Shown: one piece after another, positions 5,765 to 25,634 of the stretch
Layout: each line of letters starts with the position of its first letter
How positions within the stretch are numbered: the first letter of the stretch is position 1
Source: Candidatus Saccharimonadota bacterium
GTDB taxonomy: Bacteria; Patescibacteriota; Saccharimonadia; Saccharimonadales; UBA4665
Reading direction: 5' to 3'
Assembly (NCBI GenBank): GCA_016699955.1
Contig: CP064993.1
Span: 180,001-212,000, forward strand
Length of the DNA: 32,000 nt
Notes under the pieces: generated by a model
Databases searched by the model: none
Seen by the model: the letters and a program-made list of their open reading frames with translations, nothing else
Told to the model about the DNA's origin: nothing
Position numbers and translations under genes: made by a program

Positions 5765-6851
5765 TCACGCATTTCGCACTTTAACTCCCAACCTGCATAA
5801 TTAGTAGCAGGGCGTTAGCCCTGCAAAACTAAGCAGGATAAAATAAACATGTCTCGATCAAAATGTTCTCGCGATCTGTATTGTGCTTTCTTGGAAGTAA
5901 CATCAGATAGATATTCAGCATTGTCACTGAGCGAAGTTGCTCCAGATGGATCGACACTGTCACATGACAGCATCTCTCGTTGGCTTGCAGACGAAAAGGT
6001 ACAGCCCAAGGATCTGTGGCAGGCTGCTAAATCTGAGGTAGCCTCTAAACCTGGTATCCTTGTCTTTGATGATGTAGTCATAGACAAAAGTCGTAGTGGT
6101 AAAACTGAATTAGTAAACTGGCAGTATGCCGGCTCGAAGCACGACATAACTAAAGGTATTGGTGTAGTTAATGCCTTATGGCAAACCAGTAAAGAAGACT
6201 ACATACCGATGGACTACCGTATATGGAATCCGTCGGAAGATGGCAAGACTAAAAACAACCATTTCAGGGATATGCTGACAGCTGTGAAACAGCGTCAACT
6301 TACGCCTGAAATGGTTGTTGCCGACAGCTGGTATTCCAGTCTAGATAACCTTAAAGCCACTCGCTCTCATGGCTGGGATTGGGTGATGGGGTTACGTAGC
6401 AACCGTTTGGTCAACAAACCACATGTACAGATTAAAACCCTCGAGATACCAGATGAAGGTCTGGTCGTACACCTCAAAGGATACGGATGGATCAAGCTAT
6501 TCCGGTTCGTGACCAAACACGGTCGCACTGATTACATTGGTACTAGCAAGCTCGATCTATCCAGGAGCCAAGTCAAAGAGTACTTTGAAAGACGTTGGAG
6601 CGTCGAAGTGTTGCATCGTGAACTCAAACAAACCTGTGGTTTTACTCGCTGTCTGGCCAACACTGGCCGAGCACAGAGAAACCACATTGGGCTCTCTATG
6701 CTCACCTGGATACAAAGACACAAAAGAAGATCTCAGGACAGGCTAAACAATAGACAAAACAGCATGTACCAACAAAAGTGGGAGGTCATAAAACCGAGCA
6801 TCCAGCTAGCGCTGGCTGCTCGTATGCGTGGTTAAGGTGCGAAATGCGTGA
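5765..6851 (+). mobile_element. insertion sequence, about 1087 bp, IS4/IS701-like, with 21-bp terminal inverted repeats
   Basis: IRL is TCACGCATTTCGCACTTTAAC (5765-5785). IRR is GTTAAGGTGCGAAATGCGTGA (6831-6851). They match 20/21 as reverse complements. A single DDE transposase ORF lies inside. A possible 3-bp flanking duplication CAA (5762-5764 and 6852-6854) is too short to be certain. Confidence 0.75.
5849..6835 (+). CDS. DDE transposase (IS4/IS701-like)
   Basis: 328 aa. LVFDDVVIDKS (first D), VVADSWYSS (second D) and YFERRWSVEVLHRELKQTCGF (the RW-x-E-x5-K region typical of IS4-superfamily transposases). The stop codon lies inside IRR. Confidence 0.85.
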   Translation: MSRSKCSRDLYCAFLEVTSDRYSALSLSEVAPDGSTLSHDSISRWLADEKVQPKDLWQAAKSEVASKPGILVFDDVVIDKSRSGKTELVNWQYAGSKHDITKGIGVVNALWQTSKEDYIPMDYRIWNPSEDGKTKNNHFRDMLTAVKQRQLTPEMVVADSWYSSLDNLKATRSHGWDWVMGLRSNRLVNKPHVQIKTLEIPDEGLVVHLKGYGWIKLFRFVTKHGRTDYIGTSKLDLSRSQVKEYFERRWSVEVLHRELKQTCGFTRCLANTGRAQRNHIGLSMLTWIQRHKRRSQDRLNNRQNSMYQQKWEVIKPSIQLALAARMRG

Positions 6852-9111: not shown

Positions 9112-10772
9112 TTATGTTTCGTTCTTCCCAAGTGGATGTTTGGCGCACTCGATGAGGGCAGCGTCGTGCGGCGAGAGATGAACTACGCCGTTTTCGTCAA
9201 TGCGCGGCGGTCTCTGCGGGCGCACGCTCACGAGTACGCGGCCACCATGCGGCAGAGTAAACGTTGCCTCGCGCCGTGAATAATTTGCCACCACAAAAAC
9301 ATGCTCGTCTCCACTACGGCGACCAAAAGCAAATACCTGTTCGTCGGCTTCACCGCTCACCGACTCGTAGTCGCCGTGACGGAGTATGTCGTACCGACTG
9401 CGCAAATCCAATAAACGCCGGTAGAGCGCCAGGCATGAATCATCGTCATTTAGCTCAACAACAACGTTGCACTCCCCCGCCCCAGCCGCAACCGGAAGCC
9501 ACGGTGTGGCAGTCGTAAAGCCGGCCGCACTCGTAGCGTCCCACTGCATGGGTGTACGTTCGGGGTCGCGCCCTTCGTTGAGTTCGGGCTTACGCAGCTG
9601 CACAGGGTCATGCACGGCACTCGGCGGAATTACCCCATCCGTCATGCCAAGTTCGTCACCGTAGTAGATAACCGGCAGACCAGGCAGACAAAGCTGAGTA
9701 AGGGCTACCACGCGCGCCTGCGCTACGCCGGTGCGTGAAGCCAGTCGATGTTGATCATGATTGCCAAAACAATAAACTGGAGTGTGTTCGTCTTGGTTCA
9801 AAAAATCCCTGAAACTCGGTGATAAAATTGCGATATGCTTCGGCTGTAAACGGTAGTCCGATGCCCTCAAAGTTAAACGGCATGCTCACGCGAGGATTGA
9901 TGCCGTAAAAGCCGAGATATTGGTCGCGTGTGGTGTAGGCTTCGTCAGGGTAATCCTCAAAAATCATGATGCGGTTTTCATATTCCTCTACAACGTGGGT
10001 CAGCTCTCGCAAATACTCAAACAAGTGTGGCCCAAACCGGCTATGAACGTGTATAAGCCCCCAGTATGGGTCGTCTGGCGGACGGTCGGTATATTTTAGG
10101 TTGCGCGGATCGTCGCGGAGACTTTCGTCTTTAGAGATCCAACGCACGGCGTCTGCCCGCATACCGTCAACACCCATGTCAAACCAAAACCTCAAAATTT
10201 GCGCCATTTCATTGCGAACGTGCGGGTTGTCCCAGTTGAGGTCAGGCTGTTCTTTGAGGAATGTATGTAGGTAGTATTGTCCCGTTGTCTCGTCCCATTC
10301 CCAAGCCGATCCACCGAATATACTTAGCCAGTTGTTCGGCGGTGAACCGTCAGGCTTGGCATCGCGCCAGACGTAATAATCGCGCTTATCGTTAGTCTTA
10401 GACGATTTTGAAAGAAGAAACCAAGGGGTGTTCGCTCGATGTGTGGTTTGGCACAAAATCTATCATGACTTTTATGCCTTGTTCGTGGGCTTGTGCTAGT
10501 AGCTCCTTAAAATCCTCCAGTGTTCCAAACAGTGGGTCTATATCGCAGTAGTCGCTAACATCGTAGCCAAAATCTGCCATGGGGCTTGGAAAAAACGGCG
10601 AGAACCACACGGCATCAATCCCCAATGGCTCTTCCCCACCCTTGAGATAACCAAGGCGCTGAATGATCCCCTGCAAATCACCCACACCGTCCCCGTTTCC
10701 ATCCTGAAAGCTCCGCGGATATATCTGGTAAATAGCATTCACGTCTTTCCACGTTTTTGTTTGTGTTGTCAT
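9112..10772 (-). pseudogene. GH13 alpha-glucosidase (oligo-1,6-glucosidase / trehalose-6-P hydrolase type) interrupted by two +1 frameshifts
   Basis: Three consecutive ORFs (10398-10811, 9755-10456 and 9112-9870) together give a collinear GH13 protein: [19 protein letters not shown]...[12 protein letters not shown] | WF..SKSS...DYYVWRD...QPDLNWDNPHVRNEM...GVDGMRADAV | ...FGNHDQHRL. Frame changes occur at G4 (10425-10428) and A6 (9800-9805). The likely start is MTTQTK at 10772. Confidence 0.8.
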
Positions 10773-13458: not shown

Positions 13459-14490
13459 ATGCTGCGCATAGATGAACACGTATCCCTCGCACAGTATTCC
13501 ACCATGCGTCTTGGCGGCGAAGCGGCGTATCTTGCTGAAGTTCATAGTCGTGACGATCTAAAAGAGGCGTCTGCCTGGGCATCAGAGCGACAGCTCCCCC
13601 TACTCATGATTGGTGGCGGTAGTAACATTGTTTGGCGCGACGAAGGTTTTCCGGGACTTATTTTGGTCAACCGTATGCTAGGCTACGAAACTTACGTGTT
13701 ACTTGATAGCCATTTCGTAACAGTCGGTGCTGGTGAAATATGGGACACGGTTGTCGGCCGTACCGTGGCCGCGGGGCTGACAGGCATAGAAGCACTCAGT
13801 CTTATACCTGGTACCGCAGGAGCTACACCGGTACAAAATGTGGGAGCATACGGCCAAGAAATTGCCCAGACACTTACTAGTGTGGAGGTTTTTGATAGAA
13901 CAACTGGCCAGTTCACTACAGTACCTACCGAAGCGTGTGGCTTTTCCTACCGCCACAGCAAGTTTCAAACCGAATACCGCGACCGCTTTTTTATAACCGC
14001 AATTACCTTGCACCTCATAGCGGGAAACCCATTCCCTCCCTTCTACAGTGCGGTCGAGAAATACTTAGGCGAGCATCCTGTTGATGGTGACGTGACCCCA
14101 CGCGTCATTAGAGATGCCGTCACTGCTATTCGCTCAAGCAAACTACCTGACCCAGCTAGGGTAGCAAACAACGGCTCCTTCTTTGGAAACCCAGTGGTGG
14201 ACAGTCGCAAATTTATGGAACTAGTTGCTGAGTATCCGACCATGCCAAACTGGTCAAATGAGGATGAAAAAATCAAAATTCCGGCGGCCTGGCTGATAGA
14301 GCAAGTGGGATATAAAGATGTACACGACAGCAAAACCGGCATGGCCACCTGGCCAACACAGCCGCTTGTACTCGTCAATGAACATGCCAAATCTACCGCC
14401 GACCTCCTGCGCTTCCGCGACGAAATTGTGTCAGCCGTGCAAACAAAATTCGGCATAACCCTCAACCAAGAACCCGAACTACTCCCATAA
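13459..14490 (+). CDS. murB: UDP-N-acetylenolpyruvoylglucosamine reductase
   Basis: LAQYSTMRLGGEA...LMIGGGSNIV...GAGE.WD..V...GL.G.E.LS.IPGTAGATPVQNVGAYG is the MurB FAD-binding core, with a C-terminal substrate domain. The ORF opens at 13408, but ATG 13459 (MLRIDEH) fits MurB N-termini and sits 7 nt after TATTAT. Confidence 0.85.
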   Translation: MLRIDEHVSLAQYSTMRLGGEAAYLAEVHSRDDLKEASAWASERQLPLLMIGGGSNIVWRDEGFPGLILVNRMLGYETYVLLDSHFVTVGAGEIWDTVVGRTVAAGLTGIEALSLIPGTAGATPVQNVGAYGQEIAQTLTSVEVFDRTTGQFTTVPTEACGFSYRHSKFQTEYRDRFFITAITLHLIAGNPFPPFYSAVEKYLGEHPVDGDVTPRVIRDAVTAIRSSKLPDPARVANNGSFFGNPVVDSRKFMELVAEYPTMPNWSNEDEKIKIPAAWLIEQVGYKDVHDSKTGMATWPTQPLVLVNEHAKSTADLLRFRDEIVSAVQTKFGITLNQEPELLP

Positions 14491-14685
14491 ATAACTTTTC
14501 TACAAAGCTCACCCTTTGGCTTGGACGACTCTGAAGACGGCGGGGAGGTGTTTTCGTCAGTCGAGCTTATGTGGGGCTGGGTTTGGATAAACATGCGTAC
14601 CCCTGTAGGTGAGCAACCAAGCAATACTAGCGGTTTTCCGCCGACAATATGGGCCTCATTATTTTGCTCTTGATCTGCTACGTTA

Positions 14686-15687
14686 TTACAGCTGCGTATC
14701 GGTCTCCTGCGGCAATACTACACCTAATTGATCGAGTGTTTTCGCCTCTTCAGGTATTACAATCTTAAGCGTGTCTGGATAAGTTATGTCGACAGTGGTT
14801 TTTTGCATAAGCGCTTTGGAGAGAACTCTCACGACTTTCTTAGAAGTTTTGTCTATCCAAACCGTCGCTTCCGTGGTAGGCATGTCTCCGGCGTTATAGG
14901 TGTGTTTAAGCCCTAGTTTTTCTTCTGCTTTACGATTGACCTTCGAAAGAGCATCCTTGTTTATCTTAATGTCGTATTTGAAAGCAGATATTTCTCCGAG
15001 ACGCTCAGTTTTAACTTTTTTCTTGTCAAAGGTAAACACCTTTGTTTCTCTGTACATAGTCAGCAACTCGCGCCGAAGCTCTGCCGGATAGTTACCGACA
15101 AGAAATTCACCCTGTGTCTGGTTTACGTTTCCAGCGAAACCATATGGATCGACGAGTGACGCCTCCGCTTCCGAGTTACATTTGAGCCACTTTCCAGCCA
15201 GTGTTTTATACATTGCTTGAATGCTTTCATCCCTTTCAGAGCTGTCTACATGCATAATCTTCCCATATTCGGCGCGTGTACCTGTTGTAATGCTTTCAAT
15301 TTCAGCAATTATTTTTCCGTCTACTTTATACGTGTCGTGCAGCACGGTTTTTGGCTCGGCAGGATTCGAGAAATCTGTCTTAGTATCTGACACTATAACT
15401 GCATAACCTACATCGGTTGTGTAGCGTTGTCCGATGTATTTCGTGGACATATGGTTTTCGAGCGTCTCGTAAAATACCGCTTCTGGGTCAACGACGAGCA
15501 TTTTGCTCGCAAATATACCTCCAGCAACAAGCAAAAATATCAATAGTAGGACAAGCATAATGTATTTTGTCTTCAAGCGCGTTGGTGGTTCTATGGCGGC
15601 CGGCATTGGGGTAGTCGCGGCTTCCATGGTGTATTCGGGCGTAGCCTTAATTTGGATTTCTTTCGAGGATTTAAATAATCTATTCAT
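14686..15687 (-). CDS. hypothetical membrane-anchored extracytoplasmic protein (cargo segment X)
   Basis: 333-aa ORF. About 40 aa of N-terminal tail, one TM segment (YIMLVLLLIFLLVAGGIFA), then a large soluble domain with no motif I recognise. Confidence 0.7.
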   Translation of the reverse strand: MNRLFKSSKEIQIKATPEYTMEAATTPMPAAIEPPTRLKTKYIMLVLLLIFLLVAGGIFASKMLVVDPEAVFYETLENHMSTKYIGQRYTTDVGYAVIVSDTKTDFSNPAEPKTVLHDTYKVDGKIIAEIESITTGTRAEYGKIMHVDSSERDESIQAMYKTLAGKWLKCNSEAEASLVDPYGFAGNVNQTQGEFLVGNYPAELRRELLTMYRETKVFTFDKKKVKTERLGEISAFKYDIKINKDALSKVNRKAEEKLGLKHTYNAGDMPTTEATVWIDKTSKKVVRVLSKALMQKTTVDITYPDTLKIVIPEEAKTLDQLGVVLPQETDTQL

Positions 15688-15881
15688 GGGCTTAGCCTAA
15701 CATGATACGCAACAATTTTGTATCTGTGCACGTGAGCGCGCTCGCGTATGCACTGTAAAAAAAGTATTATCATATACAGAACGATGAGTGTACTGGGCAG
15801 TTCGAAGTACGGCTGCCCGATTAGTATTTCGTTCGTGGAAGGATTATTCGATAAATGTCTGCCATGGAATCTGACATTCGT

Positions 15882-15915
15882 ATGACAGAAAAGTGTGCTG
15901 TTTTTGGCATATTTG
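15882..15915 (+). repeat. exact 34-nt copy of the purF start (partner 17974-18007)
   Basis: ATGACAGAAAAGTGTGCTGTTTTTGGCATATTTG is identical at both sites. The roughly 90 nt upstream is homologous but diverged. Confidence 0.95.
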
Positions 15916-15940
15916 CTGTTACCGGCCGGGCCCCTGTGGT

Positions 15941-15967
15941 CCTCAACCAAGAACCCGAACTACTCCC
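15941..15967 (+). repeat. exact 27-nt copy of the murB 3' end (partner 14460-14486)
   Basis: CCTCAACCAAGAACCCGAACTACTCCC is identical at both sites. It is joined to the purF-head copy by a 25-nt filler, CTGTTACCGGCCGGGCCCCTGTGGT. Confidence 0.95.
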
Positions 15968-16355
15968 GCCACGAGCTTAGTCTTGTCTTAGTCCTTAGTC
16001 GCAAAATGAGGTAAAGCTCTCCCCTGTTATTCTACAATCCCGGACAAATCTGCAGTAACTTAATCTGTTACAGGCCACGCCTGTAGTAGCTGTGGTATTT
16101 AGTGTGGTGATGTCAAGGCTCCAAGTAGTTTTTTATTGCGATTACCAGAATGGTCGGTCAAGATTTTAGTAAGATAGACTTTCCCACCTTAAGGTCTACC
16201 ACGGCCACATTTTTGAAAGATACTAGGGATAACAATGCTCAAAATCCAACTCCAGCGCCGTGATTACCGGACGTGGGTGAAACATTTTCCGTACCACATG
16301 ACAAGTAAGTAAAAAACAAGACAGAATACACAATACAAATGAGAGGGGTTGTGTT

Positions 16356-16862
16356 TTAAGCTGCTACCTTGGCAATATGTGAAGTAGGATGACCCATTGA
16401 ATTAAAAGCGTCTCCTATAACGAGACCGGCATTTGTGTAGTCTCCCTGCTGTATTTCGGCAAGTACTTTATCTCGCTCTTCTGGTGGAAGTGTATCCAAA
16501 TAAAGAACATTTACTGCATGAAGAAAACCATGAGTAATGCCTGCCACCTTAGGGTCAGGCTCGATAGCCGTAACTTTCACTGTAAAGTACGGATTACCCT
16601 TACTGTCTTCTCGTAGGCGGGTTGGATCGCAGTATACATCAACCTTGTCACTAAATTCTGGACTTTTGGCGACTTCAAACAATGCTCTTAGTCTCCTTTC
16701 GTCAACGCCAAATGGTTGAGTAGGTGTTCCTAGTTGGTATATTTTCCTTAGTCTGTCTTGATTCCAAAAAAAAATTTTGGTATCTTCGTCCACGACTAAA
16801 GGAGGAACTCCTTCCCTGTTTGGTCCAGCTTTTTGACGACTCTCTGGGCTACGTTTAAACAT
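16356..16862 (-). CDS. hypothetical protein (cargo segment Y)
   Basis: 168-aa ORF with no recognisable motif. It contains an A9 (coding-strand T9) tract at 16766-16774. Confidence 0.6.
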   Translation of the reverse strand: MFKRSPESRQKAGPNREGVPPLVVDEDTKIFFWNQDRLRKIYQLGTPTQPFGVDERRLRALFEVAKSPEFSDKVDVYCDPTRLREDSKGNPYFTVKVTAIEPDPKVAGITHGFLHAVNVLYLDTLPPEERDKVLAEIQQGDYTNAGLVIGDAFNSMGHPTSHIAKVAA

Positions 16863-16936
16863 ACATGACCTTTCATCTCCATAGTATTAGAAACATAATA
16901 TACTCTCAATCACTAGAATTGTCAAGGTGTTACTGG

Positions 16937-17076
16937 GTAACTGCTCACTGCCTCAAAAACAGAGGTGATAATTGGTCAACATCTTGCCTACGCTAAACTG
17001 CCTTATCTGTTAGCATTTATGCGATTTTACACTTGTGTAATTACTTAACAGATACCAGGAGGGTGTGAGCAGTTAC
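16937..17076. repeat. long-range inverted repeat forming a roughly 150-nt imperfect hairpin in the intergenic region
   Basis: GTAACTGCTCAC (16937-16948) pairs with GTGAGCAGTTAC (17065-17076) and extends by CCTC/GAGG after a 2-nt mismatch. An inner pair is TATCTGTTA (17004-17012) with TAACAGATA (17046-17054). Confidence 0.7.
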
Positions 17077-17149
17077 GTTACTGGCCTGAACCTCGTGGTT
17101 GCCGTATCACCTCTACAGAAAATACATGGCGTAGCGACACGGGCAAAAA

Positions 17150-17731
17150 CTACGCCACATGTACATTACCAAGAACTGTTACGCAGTCTCCGCAAAATCC
17201 TGAAGTTTCTGGCTTCAATAGCATCATCGCTATACCAGCAAGCATTTCTTGTTTGTTATTTGCCGGTCTCATTATGCATGGATTCGCGCAGTGCCCTGCA
17301 AAAGAGCTCAGGCGAGCATAATTGTTAGCATCTCTTCTCACAAGCCCAAAACTATGTCCAAGCTCATGCGTCACTAGTCCTGAAATGGCAGCAGGATTAT
17401 CTGCCAAACGGCATGTCGAAAATATAGCCTTACCCCTAGCAAAGGAAGATTGGCCAAAAAGGTAGTTCATCCCCGGATGACCTAAATCCCTTCCGGTTGC
17501 AACTACCGTCAAACCCATACCGTTCCATGCCGGTAGAGCATCTAAGATACCGGGCGCATCAACTTGACCTGACGGAAGAGTAGATAGGTCACCCTCAAGT
17601 CTTTCGCGGGAAAAAGCAAGTCCTCCAAGACGAGTTAACAGACGCCCTACTGCTTCGATTCCCCAATAGATGGCATCATAATCAGCTGTGGTAATGTACC
17701 TATCATAATAAAGAGTTACGGGCATTGTCAT
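17150..17731 (-). CDS. archaemetzincin-like zinc metallopeptidase (M54-like)
   Basis: 193 aa. HELGHSFGL followed by GHCANPCIM and a C-terminal CGDC. This matches the archaemetzincin pattern HExxHxxG...C-x-x-x-C-x-M...CxxC, except that a 17-aa insert sits between the Gly and the first Cys. Confidence 0.7.
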   Translation of the reverse strand: MTMPVTLYYDRYITTADYDAIYWGIEAVGRLLTRLGGLAFSRERLEGDLSTLPSGQVDAPGILDALPAWNGMGLTVVATGRDLGHPGMNYLFGQSSFARGKAIFSTCRLADNPAAISGLVTHELGHSFGLVRRDANNYARLSSFAGHCANPCIMRPANNKQEMLAGIAMMLLKPETSGFCGDCVTVLGNVHVA

Positions 17732-17973
17732 AATTATTATATTATTTTATCATTTTTGTAATATATGCGGATTGTTGCGTCCTACATTCCATCCCGAAAT
17801 GCAACAACCTTAAGAATCTAGGCGGTATTGTGCTTGCACAAAAAGGCATAAACAAGTACTATTTTTATAAGGTAAGGGAAATATTACGGGCAGTGAAGTA
17901 AAGAACTGTCCGCTTAGTGATTCAATCGGGAGATAGCATCACGTTCATGATCGAAATGCAAGATGATAAACAA

Positions 17974-19392
17974 ATGACAGAAAAGTGTGCTGTTTTTGGC
18001 ATATTTGGAGCGAGCCCAGAAGTAGAAGCGGCTCGTTTGTCTTTTTATGGGCTGTGTGCGCTGCAGCACCGCGGACAGGAAAGTTCAGGGATTTCAACTT
18101 CGGATGGTAAAAGCCTTTACTTACACGCTGACTATGGCCTTGTGACAACCGTTTACCGCCAGCAAGACCTAGATAAACTACCTGGGCATATTGCTATCGG
18201 TCACAACCGTTACTCCACCTCTGGCGGCACAGATGACTGTTTTAACCAACCGTTTCTTGACAACAAGCACGGCTTCGCTTTTGCCCATAACGGCAACTTG
18301 CCCGACACATCACAGCTCGAAGAGTTCTTAAAAAGTCACCACATCTCATCCAGCAGGCTAAATGATTCCGGCATGATGGCAGCGGCCATTGCCGCACAGC
18401 TTGGGACAGGGCTGAGCTTGCCCGACGCTATCGCTGCCTGTTATCCGCTCTTTACAGGTGTATTTTCGGCGGTGGCGATGAACCAAGATACACTTGTCGC
18501 CTTCCGCGACCCACACGGCATTCGGCCACTGGCTTTGGGTAAAATGCAGGACGGCACTTATGTCATCGCCAGTGAAACCTGCGCACTCGATACCATTGGC
18601 GCGAAGTTTGAGCGCGAAATCGACCCCGGTGAAATGGTCGTTATTTCATCAGATGGTATTCGGTCCACGCAAGTCATCCCAGGTGAACAAAAGCTCGATA
18701 TTTTTGAGTTTGTATACTTTGCCCGGCCCGACAGTATCATCCTCGGTCAAAGTGTCAACAAAGTACGCATGAATTTTGGACGGCTTATGGCACGCGAACG
18801 TTTAGTGAGCGCCGATGTGGTTATTCCGGTGCCTGATTCCTCCATTCCCGCAGCACTCGGCTACGCTGAAGCCAGCGGTATTCCTTTTGAAATGAACCTT
18901 ATAAAGAACCGCTACATCCACCGCACGTTCATCCGCCCCACAGCCGAGCTGCGTGAGCACGACCTTAAAATGAAATTAAACCCACTAGTCGAAGCAATAG
19001 CGGGTCGCCGCGTTGTTCTCGTAGATGACTCAATCGTCCGGGGTACTACCATGCGAAAAACGGTACAGATGCTACGCGATGCAGGCGCAACTGAAGTTCA
19101 CCTCATGATTAGTTCGCCACCAGTTCTCTACCCTGACTATTACGGCATAAACACCCCGTCACAAAAGGAACTTATTGCTTCCGAAAAGACCGTGCCACAA
19201 ATTCGTCAGTACGTTGGCGCAGACTCATTGTATTTTCTCAGCTACGATGGCATGGTTAAAGCCACAGGCTTACCCGAACATGTGTTTTCCGCCTCGTGCT
19301 TTACCGGAATATACCCGACCCCTATCGGAAAACGCGCAGCTGAAATCACTCATGTTAACATTACGGACCGTTTAGTCCCGGAATCAAAATGA
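17974..19392 (+). CDS. purF: amidophosphoribosyltransferase
   Basis: MTEKCAVFGIFG (N-terminal nucleophile Cys after a short propeptide), ALQHRGQESSGI, GHNRYSTSG and a PRTase motif VVLVDDSIVRGTT. The track ORF opens at GTG 17917. ATG 17974 is preferred because a conserved leader hairpin overlaps the upstream part. Confidence 0.9.
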   Translation: MTEKCAVFGIFGASPEVEAARLSFYGLCALQHRGQESSGISTSDGKSLYLHADYGLVTTVYRQQDLDKLPGHIAIGHNRYSTSGGTDDCFNQPFLDNKHGFAFAHNGNLPDTSQLEEFLKSHHISSSRLNDSGMMAAAIAAQLGTGLSLPDAIAACYPLFTGVFSAVAMNQDTLVAFRDPHGIRPLALGKMQDGTYVIASETCALDTIGAKFEREIDPGEMVVISSDGIRSTQVIPGEQKLDIFEFVYFARPDSIILGQSVNKVRMNFGRLMARERLVSADVVIPVPDSSIPAALGYAEASGIPFEMNLIKNRYIHRTFIRPTAELREHDLKMKLNPLVEAIAGRRVVLVDDSIVRGTTMRKTVQMLRDAGATEVHLMISSPPVLYPDYYGINTPSQKELIASEKTVPQIRQYVGADSLYFLSYDGMVKATGLPEHVFSASCFTGIYPTPIGKRAAEITHVNITDRLVPESK

Positions 19393-25476: not shown

Positions 25477-25551
25477 TGGTGCGGGTAGGGAGAATCGAAC
25501 TCCCATCTCGAGTTTGGAAAACTCGCATACTAACCATTGTACTATACCCGC
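25477..25551 (-). tRNA. tRNA-Gly (anticodon TCC), CCA encoded
   Basis: The reverse complement folds as GCGGGTA/TACCCGC, GTAC-AATGGTTA-GTAT, CGAGT-TTTCCAA-ACTCG, GGGAG-TTCGATT-CTCCC, then ACCA. Confidence 0.9.
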
Positions 25552-25557
25552 TTGTCT

Positions 25558-25634
25558 TGGCGCCCCGGGCAGGATTCGAACCTGCGGCCTTAGGCTTAGA
25601 AGTCCTCTGCTCTATCCAGCTGAGCTACCGGGGC
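25558..25634 (-). tRNA. tRNA-Arg (anticodon TCT), CCA encoded; the anticodon stem has two non-Watson-Crick pairs
   Basis: The reverse complement folds as GCCCCGG/CCGGGGC, GCTC-AGCTGGATA-GAGC, GAGGA-CTTCTAA-GCCTA (27G.43A and 31A.39G mismatches), GCAGG-TTCGAAT-CCTGC, then GCCA. Confidence 0.75.

Follow-up and report, generated by a model that had tools for sequence, protein, structure and literature searches.

The interval between murB and purF was analysed in a 32,000-nt stretch of DNA (the window; contig CP064993.1, positions 180,001 to 212,000) from a Candidatus Saccharibacteria (Saccharimonadales) metagenome-assembled genome (MAG) that consists of one 1,211,496-bp contig. The proteins of the window are identical to QQS20022-QQS20034 (locus tags IPL85_010xx). 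Between the two genes lie two tandem units of unrelated content, bounded by interleaved exact copies of the murB 3' end and of the purF 5' end. Comparison with relatives shows that one Saccharimonadales clade has an accessory-gene hot spot in the murB-purF gap; the duplicated 27-nt tail and 34-nt head found there are recombination scars.

Gene ends and cargo between murB and purF

On its left side the hot spot is bounded by an intact core gene, murB (UDP-N-acetylmuramate dehydrogenase; 13459..14490, plus strand; Pfam FAD_binding_4 and MurB_C; identical to P0005/QQS20024.1). Its last 27 nt (T1, 14460..14486, plus strand) encode LNQEPELLP, of which the C-terminal QEPELLP is conserved across the family, and the next stop codon comes from the side of the X unit. 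The same nucleotides recur at 15941..15967 on the plus strand (T2, 27/27 nt), as an orphan tail that continues with PPRA and a stop to 15980. On the right, purF is also intact on the plus strand (17947-19392, start at 17947 or 17974; identified by Pfam and by the NCBI name of the identical protein). The purF first 34 nt (H2, 17974..18007, plus strand, inside the intact gene) are repeated at 15882..15915 as an orphan head encoding MTEKCAVFGIF (H1, plus strand, 34/34 nt), and the match reaches 52 nt at 85% when extended upstream. A sensitive self-comparison of 14300-18200 returned these two repeats alone (E = 8e-10 and 5.5e-14) and no third, in the interleaved order that the initial annotation had described.

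The elements follow one another as tail–X–leader'–head'–M–tail'–Y–leader–head, where primes mark the orphan copies and M is the 25-nt segment CTGTTACCGGCCGGGCCCCTGTGGT that separates head' from tail' (M1, 15916..15940, plus strand; CTGTTA-CCGGC-CGG-GCCCC-TGTGGT). Unit 1 consists of a murB tail, X and a purF leader and head, and unit 2 of a murB tail, the motif, Y and a purF leader and head. T1 and T2 flank the X unit, H1 and H2 flank the Y unit, and both murB and purF keep their full length. The novel joint is located at 15882-15967, where the purF head runs to +34, M follows, and the murB tail starts at -27.

Segment X (14487-15881) holds one minus-strand gene of 333 aa, X333 (14686-15687), within a cargo part (14487..15759, minus strand) that contains a terminator-like hairpin found by a terminator scan (14629-14642). 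It ends with the orphan purF leader (leader', 15760..15881, plus strand). Segment Y (15968-17973) opens with a spacer 3' of T2 (15968..16064, plus strand), in which a scan for CTGTTA located a degenerate motif copy from 16024. Next comes M2 (16061..16090, plus strand; CTGTTACAGGC-CAC-GCCTGTAG), the best-formed copy of the motif, in its canonical place between murB tail and cargo. Two minus-strand genes of 168 aa (Y168, 16356..16862) and 193 aa (Y193, 17150..17731; 191 aa in the NCBI record) precede the resident purF leader with its conserved hairpin, placed by leader alignments (17852..17973, plus strand). Beyond the 27-nt and 34-nt repeats, X and Y have nothing in common in the self-comparison, and the GC content of the X unit (0.444) and the Y unit (0.428) is lower than that of murB (0.51) and purF (0.50), which bears out the earlier statement that they carry unrelated genes of lower GC content than their flanks. 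Two further features of Y were recorded. A heptamer, CTTAGTC, occurs three times after T2 (15976-15982, 15987-15993, 15994-16000), and the stretch between Y193 and Y168 contains an 18-nt inverted repeat (16937-17076), whose arms are separated by 104 nt, match with 89% complementarity and surround a second palindrome (CTGTTAGC...TTAACAG). This repeat could represent a structure resembling a miniature inverted-repeat transposable element, or an operator.

The X333 product is a membrane-anchored protein with homologues (47-62% identical) from clade relatives alone, and all those of known context (3/3; loci L081, L011 and L012, described below) lie inside the murB-purF gap. Y168 is an ORFan: its sole match is its own record, QQS20026.1, it matches no family, and its structure model (predicted local distance difference test, pLDDT, of 57) is too poor for a fold search. 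Y193 is an archaemetzincin-like HEXXH metalloprotease, matching NCBIfam archmetzin at 2.3e-9, which is under the curated cut-off, and archaemetzincins in the PDB at 8e-8. None of the three proteins has a recombinase domain; Pfam and recombinase scans agree with the initial annotation that the interval is devoid of a recombinase gene, and tRNA and Rfam scans found nothing within it. No tyrosine, serine or HUH recombinase was detected in the whole 32-kb window. The sole window transposase, a DDE_Tnp_1 protein of 328 aa (5849-6835), is distant from the locus and unrelated to it. It lies immediately upstream of a prephenate dehydratase open reading frame (ORF) of 288 aa, compared with 437 aa in the related locus L279 (5849-7714), which suggests the insertion of an insertion sequence (IS) in or beside that gene.

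H1, M1 and T2 share one reading frame, and the reported chimeric ORF of 32 codons (15882-15980) is present; it comprises 41 aa when read from the ATG at 15855 (15855..15980, plus strand). It is probably incidental: we estimate the chance of such an in-frame ORF arising by accident at about 1 in 5. The source record leaves it unannotated, with consecutive locus tags IPL85_01010 and IPL85_01015, and none of its possible forms (32, 38 or 41 aa) occurs in the protein collection.

Leader' (~120 nt) aligns with the purF leaders of eight relatives and has in common with them a promoter-like box (TATCATATA in leader') and a hairpin (15794-15819). As leader' is a genuine leader of purF, unit 1 represents a complete gap allele. 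Leader' is 46% identical to the resident leader (58/126 aligned columns), no closer than either is to the leaders of other species. The initial annotation had recognised it as a homologue of the true purF leader, with 100% identity from the ATG on, and this stands; its estimate of 60-70% identity upstream of the ATG was too high. At the ATG identity jumps to 34/34, and other species match 23-31 of 34 positions over the same head stretch (3-11 differences). For the 27-nt tail, no other locus has fewer than two mismatches among 172 related loci, whose flanks (~1.75 Mb) were the comparison set for tails and motif. Since other species differ at head and tail, the exact repeats exceed what conservation would give; either the crossover took place in these very segments or homogenisation has made them alike.

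The leader hairpin (GGGCAG...CTGCCC, with a TTAG-like box and one covarying pair) is found in both window leaders (15794-15819 and 17889-17914) and in L003-L006, L011, L012, L020 and L289. It was flagged as terminator-like and may be an attenuator or a regulator site. Another conserved box, CGTTGTGAAAT, is located ~150 nt upstream of purF in L001, L081, L009, L011, L012 and L020, and is not evident in the window leaders. Neither the leader nor M has an Rfam match.

The gap and its motif in related genomes

The nearest murB proteins in one-genome-per-species and metagenome collections are 85-86% identical to that of the window, and the top relative in the metagenome scan reached 78%. Exact-protein look-ups for the window murB, X333, Y193, purN and the chimeric ORF gave no match. 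For the species itself, coverage consists of the present MAG and of fragmentary contigs in Logan (separate assemblies of public sequencing runs), seen through the protein collection.

When the interval was compared in relatives, as had been recommended, murB and purF were found adjacent, with some of the gaps filled with cargo. Six loci (L004, L005, L006, L009, L020 and L289) have an empty gap of 125-250 nt, occupied by the purF leader alone, and one of them, L289, belongs to the closest relative (86%). Five others have filled gaps of differing content. The L003 species carries a 235-aa protein and an Xre-type helix-turn-helix (HTH) protein, and this content is identical in each of the 10 contigs listed for its exact murB protein (18 read). 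L011 has an X333 homologue, in a layout that unit X resembles, and L012 an X333 homologue with further cargo. In L001 the gap holds a 400-aa AAA_14/DUF4143 ATPase and a 110-aa ORF. The 7-kb gap of L081 contains an L001-type ATPase, a 114-aa ORF, an X333 homologue, four more ORFs and an IS1595 transposase. Two of the proteins encoded in the relatives' gaps match candidate defence families of PADLOC (PDC-S01, 4.6e-146, and PDC-S42, 8e-27). The layout of Y is the canonical one of L001, L003 and L081: murB tail, short spacer, M, cargo, leader, purF. As their flanks are ~95-97% identical, L001 and L081 represent one species, and their cassette content differs. The same flanking genes enclose empty gaps and differently filled ones, also within one species, and the earlier proposal that the interval is a cargo hot spot is thereby confirmed. 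Three contigs of the L003 species with the same murB (L281, L283 and L287) end 61-171 nt past its stop, one of them 8 nt after M, which hints at strain heterogeneity starting at the cassette border.

Extra murB tails were found in two of the filled gaps. L001 has a second tail of 142 nt (93% identity) 3' of the ATPase cassette, and L081 has three (143, 106 and 105 nt; 92-94% identity), each between successive cassettes; the overall range of identity is 92-98% (arrays at 1826-3930 in L001 and 2870-9960 in L081, reverse-complement coordinates). Two of the L081 copies begin within ~8 nt of one another. The tail variant inside the intact murB differs between L001 and L081, which indicates exchange among the tail copies. 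Accretion that duplicates the murB end therefore recurs in the clade, serially and independently. Outside the window, no extra purF head was detected.

The 25 nt between head' and tail', which the initial annotation had regarded as filler, are one instance of a conserved hairpin motif, M, by which the borders of cassettes are marked in three species. M is 22-25 nt long (CTGTTA–stem–loop–stem–CTGTRG); its stem measures 7 bp and its loop 3 nt, as in TACAGGC-CAC-GCCTGTA between CTGT and G; the z-score of the M2 hairpin is -2.3. The regular expression CTGTT-N2-5-GG-N2-8-CYTGTRG matched the window twice, at 15916-15939 (the former filler) and at 16065-16086, and none of 100 shuffles (0/100). Among 288 fetched loci it matched only the gaps of L001 and L081 and one unrelated viral contig, where the match is probably due to chance. 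A covariance model built on six copies (R1) scored M1 at 31 bits (E = 2.6e-5) and M2 at 36 bits (E = 8e-7). Over the 1.75 Mb of related DNA it detected two copies in the window, one in L001, three in L081, one site in L023 and, 24 nt past the murB stop, one copy in each of the 11 contigs that represent the L003 species. Empty gaps are without M.

M1 is a slightly degenerate copy, and the nearest to it is the L081 copy CTGTTAAAGGCTGGGCCTGTGGT. A second L081 copy, CTGTTAGAGGCCAGGCCTCTTGCC, abuts the 5' edge of the 106-nt tail, just as the former filler abuts T2, and M hence adjoins the 5' edge of a truncated tail in two species, at -27 in the window and at -106 in L081. Because the L081 joint matches that of the window, motif–truncated tail–spacer–motif is a module that recurs between cassettes in two species. 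M travels with the cassettes of the hot spot and is located at their borders. It does not have the distribution of a dispersed palindrome of the REP/RAYT type (repetitive extragenic palindromes and their associated transposases): the 32 kb contain two copies, both in the gap, and in the ~1.75 Mb of flanks it occurs in the gap only, apart from one tRNA-side site.

That site, in L023 (13186-15172 region), scored 31.5 bits and lies 73 nt past tRNA-Gly(tcc). It precedes a CCTTTGAGTTT x2 tandem repeat at the edge of a 1.8-kb insertion, made of two paralogous small genes with a unit period of ~745-770 nt, which splits tRNA-Gly and tRNA-Arg; in the window these are just 6 nt apart (25477-25634). A different tandem repeat, CCTGTAGTT, stands 3' of M twice in L001 (1861-1878) and three times in L081, and the L003 species repeats CCTCTAG beside motif or tail. 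The 10-mer CTCAACCAAG that opens the window tail repeat (15942-15951) is also present ~20 nt after M in L001 (1887-1896) and L081, where it overlaps the ATPase stop codon. This may be a coincidence, related 8-mers being common; a CCAAG or CTCAACCAAG box after M was discarded as a signal, as the 8-mer is too frequent (9 per 32 kb). Other identities were rejected for these elements. The filler is not diverged murB: by eye ~6/27 nt match the nine codons upstream of T1, and AVTGRAPVV misfits the invariant KFGIT region. The tail is not an integron inverse core (CTCAAC), a sequence that the L001 and L081 tails are without, and M as a dif/Xer site or a DNA-uptake sequence was ruled out on architecture and copy number.

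Origin of the tandem units

The order T,H,T,H fits the junction of a tandem duplication or of a circle, the two possibilities that the initial annotation had offered. A plain tandem duplication does not hold, as the units are not duplicates: instead of two head-to-tail copies of the same segment, only their ends are common. Nor do the units represent two independent simple insertions, because those would give tail, tail, head, head. On balance, one Campbell-type insertion-duplication is the somewhat probable origin of the tandem gap units, with host homologous recombination as our favoured guess for the machinery. We infer an incoming circular or concatemeric molecule, which would have carried a whole gap unit closed head-to-tail through M. 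A single reciprocal crossover inside a conserved gene end, the tail or equivalently the head, would leave murB and purF intact and an orphan copy of each end, tail and head, at the joint. The implied circle would measure 1,481 or 2,092 bp, and the newcomer could be either unit. Such an insertion would account for the jump from ~46% to 100% identity exactly at the gene ends. The driver would be homologous recombination after natural transformation, favoured because the lineage is naturally competent (Saccharibacteria recombine incoming DNA; PMC10633639), because no recombinase is nearby, because the L001 and L081 tails are long and patchily converted, and because identity switches at the gene ends.

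Several points weigh against this proposal. Look-ups and the metagenome scan revealed neither a circular form nor an X-only or Y-only allele of the window species; the predicted X-only purF and Y-only murB proteins are absent from the collection, in which the Logan data are fragmentary. Repeats of 27-34 nt are close to the lower limit for a RecA-dependent crossover, and natural transformation usually imports DNA as linear single strands instead of circles. The motif at the joint is left unexplained by homologous recombination alone, as is the direct contact of M with tails that are truncated at different points in two species. Covariation in the M hairpin is itself weak: over 6 sequences there are 2 covarying pairs, 85.7% of cells are paired, and the observed covariation score was attained by 32/500 shuffles.

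The main rival explanation, which we consider unlikely but well short of negligible, is that a recombinase acting in trans, encoded at another place in the genome or on a transient element, uses M as attachment or crossover site, that the cassettes are integrase-less units which it moves between M sites, and that the gene-end fragments were captured by aberrant excision, as in specialised transduction. The distribution of M agrees with it, since M forms the left border of unrelated cargo (three sets, in three species) and is absent from empty sites, and so do the direct junctions of M with tails truncated at -27 and -106, the start of two L081 tail copies within ~8 nt, and the M-like L023 site beside tRNA-Gly at the edge of an insertion. 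Tandem repeats of the 3' arm also flank M (CCTGTAGTT x2-3 in L001 and L081, CCTTTGAGTTT x2 in L023), and integrase-less remnants beside an att site have been described for tycheposon islands (10.1101/2020.12.28.424599). A candidate enzyme is missing, however: no tyrosine, serine or HUH recombinase is encoded in the window or in the L001, L081 and L003 gaps; L081 offers no more than an IS1595 transposase. Tail, motif and cargo are on no phage or plasmid in IMG/VR (searched with X333, with Y193 and with QEPELLP back-translated into a pattern), INPHARED or PLSDB (blastn). M is very short, with its 7-bp stem and 3-nt loop, and the long, patchily converted tail copies resemble products of homologous recombination. 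It is a doubtful, if conceivable, suggestion that M is the recognition site of a Saccharibacteria recombination system whose enzyme acts in trans and which builds integrase-less arrays at the ends of housekeeping genes. Its targets would then be, just as tentatively, the murB-purF gap and possibly tRNA-Gly in L023, and captured fragments would serve as homology for the next integration.

Rather improbable in our view is a local tandem duplication from murB -27 to purF +34, by illegitimate or transformation-triggered unequal exchange, followed by a double-crossover replacement of the cargo through murB and the 34-nt orphan head. The joint has the topology of a tandem duplication, duplications driven by transformation are documented (PMC3784515), and a right limit of the replacement at the 34-nt head would explain the sharp switch at the ATG. 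This scenario nevertheless requires two rare events and is less economical than one insertion; it leaves M at the joint unaccounted for, the two leaders are mutually as distant (46% identity) as from other species, and the L081 arrays have tail copies without head copies. An assembly chimera, in which the assembler would have joined in series two co-existing strain haplotypes, one with the X allele and the other with the Y allele, is very improbable. It would be compatible with a source that is a MAG on a single 1.21-Mb contig, and with an alpha-amylase split into two overlapping minus-strand ORFs of 252 and 233 aa at 9112-10456 (a single 547-aa gene in L279), which suggests leftover indel errors; the split may be a frameshift, a pseudogene or a long-read indel error. 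It would also suit the independent Logan data, which contain a 4,250-nt contig with an identical murB, and HTH188, X333 and purN as complete proteins, and in which trehalase, Y168, Y193, purF and purD were not found as complete proteins. If HTH188, murB and X333 are on one contig, its right end would be at 15,713-16,861, bracketing the joint, and an assembly graph built with a short k might fork at the 34-nt repeat. Missing Y genes are, however, weak evidence, because 6/13 of the window proteins checked are absent from Logan, and for the same reason they were dismissed as proof of an X-only strain. A haplotype mis-join would carry long shared flanks rather than 34 nt, a 25-nt motif and 27 nt, so that the H1–M and M–T2 junctions must be present in real molecules, and the motif-tail type of junction is also present in an independent assembly of another species (L081).

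Saccharibacteria, and Patescibacteria in general, have tiny genomes with few recognisable mobile elements, and the ways in which they acquire accessory and defence genes are poorly understood. The locus offers a concrete route, in which small cassettes accumulate between two essential-pathway genes and leave scars, orphan gene ends and a conserved hairpin, that can be searched for in other genomes. Should M turn out to serve in recombination as a site, an uncultivated phylum would have a new cassette system, and genetic tools would have a natural landing pad. If the cause is homologous recombination following transformation, natural insertion-duplication would have proceeded on only ~30 nt of identity.

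Comparison with known systems

The initial annotation knew of no described mechanism for the pattern, yet published mechanisms that give it include insertion-duplication at gene ends (PMC6379469), the serial accretion of elements at a single att site (10.1101/2020.12.28.424599) and tandem duplication driven by transformation (PMC3784515). The e14 prophage in the 3' end of icd leaves a 163-bp icd', and Rac occupies the 5' end of ttcA (PMC6379469). As at these sites, the insert is surrounded by a direct repeat of a gene end, the gene is intact with terminal codons supplied by the insert, and an orphan end stands at the far border. The e14 insertion corresponds to murB (3' end) and Rac to purF (5' end), and our locus has both. 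It differs from them in being without integrase or phage genes, in the small size of the inserts (1.5-2.1 kb, one or two genes), in the interleaving of tail and head repeats, with one unit carrying both, and in the hairpin motif at the joint. Of the hallmarks of an e14/icd-type insertion, the direct repeat and the intact target are present and an internal integrase is absent, as is a free or attP copy, since murB tail, motif and cargo gave no match in IMG/VR, INPHARED and PLSDB.

Islands driven by tycheposons beside tRNA genes in Prochlorococcus grow by serial accretion at one attachment site (10.1101/2020.12.28.424599). They resemble the arrays described here in that cargo is split by partial target copies, content varies between strains and remnants are integrase-less, and the host has a streamlined genome with few classical mobile elements. 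In contrast to tycheposons, the target at our locus is the end of a protein gene, and the arrays examined carry neither a tyrosine recombinase nor a replication module. Tandem duplications generated by transformation (merodiploids) are known in Streptococcus pneumoniae (PMC3784515), also a naturally competent lineage, and there too the joint connects the end of a unit to its start. The pneumococcal duplications are 100-900 kb long, lie between long repeats and have identical content, whereas the units at our locus are ~2 kb long and their content is unrelated.

Hot spots of accessory and defence genes that are flanked by core genes and exchanged by homologous recombination form a known class. 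The conserved core flanks, the empty sites in close relatives, the PADLOC candidates and the sharp identity switch at the gene ends all place the murB-purF gap close to it. Simple allele replacement leaves no duplicated ends, unlike the tandem units, orphan ends and motif observed here. A likeness to integrons and to clusters of attC sites lacking integron integrases (CALINs) is seen in the small co-oriented cassettes with short structured sites between them, and in the GTT-like opening of M (CTGTTA...). Integron attC sites are 57-141 nt long, with R''/L''/L'/R' boxes, and are used by an IntI integrase together with attI. Unlike these systems, the locus has no IntI, M is 22-25 nt long with one 7-bp stem, and the cassettes come with copies of neighbouring gene ends; neither a tyrosine recombinase (window and L081, L001 and L003 gaps) nor attC-type sites were detected. 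A hairpin at the right end of a unit and a CAAG shortly after M bear a possible resemblance to rolling-circle elements (IS91/ISCR/Helitron-like), which have an HUH/Y2 transposase and a terminal hairpin that closes the unit beside a CTTG/GTTC target; the gaps scanned showed no such transposase. What is unusual is the combination, in a Patescibacterium host, of two duplicated and interleaved gene ends, very small units, the lack of a recombinase and a hairpin at the cassette joints. The locus is a recombination scar, and not a new type of element.

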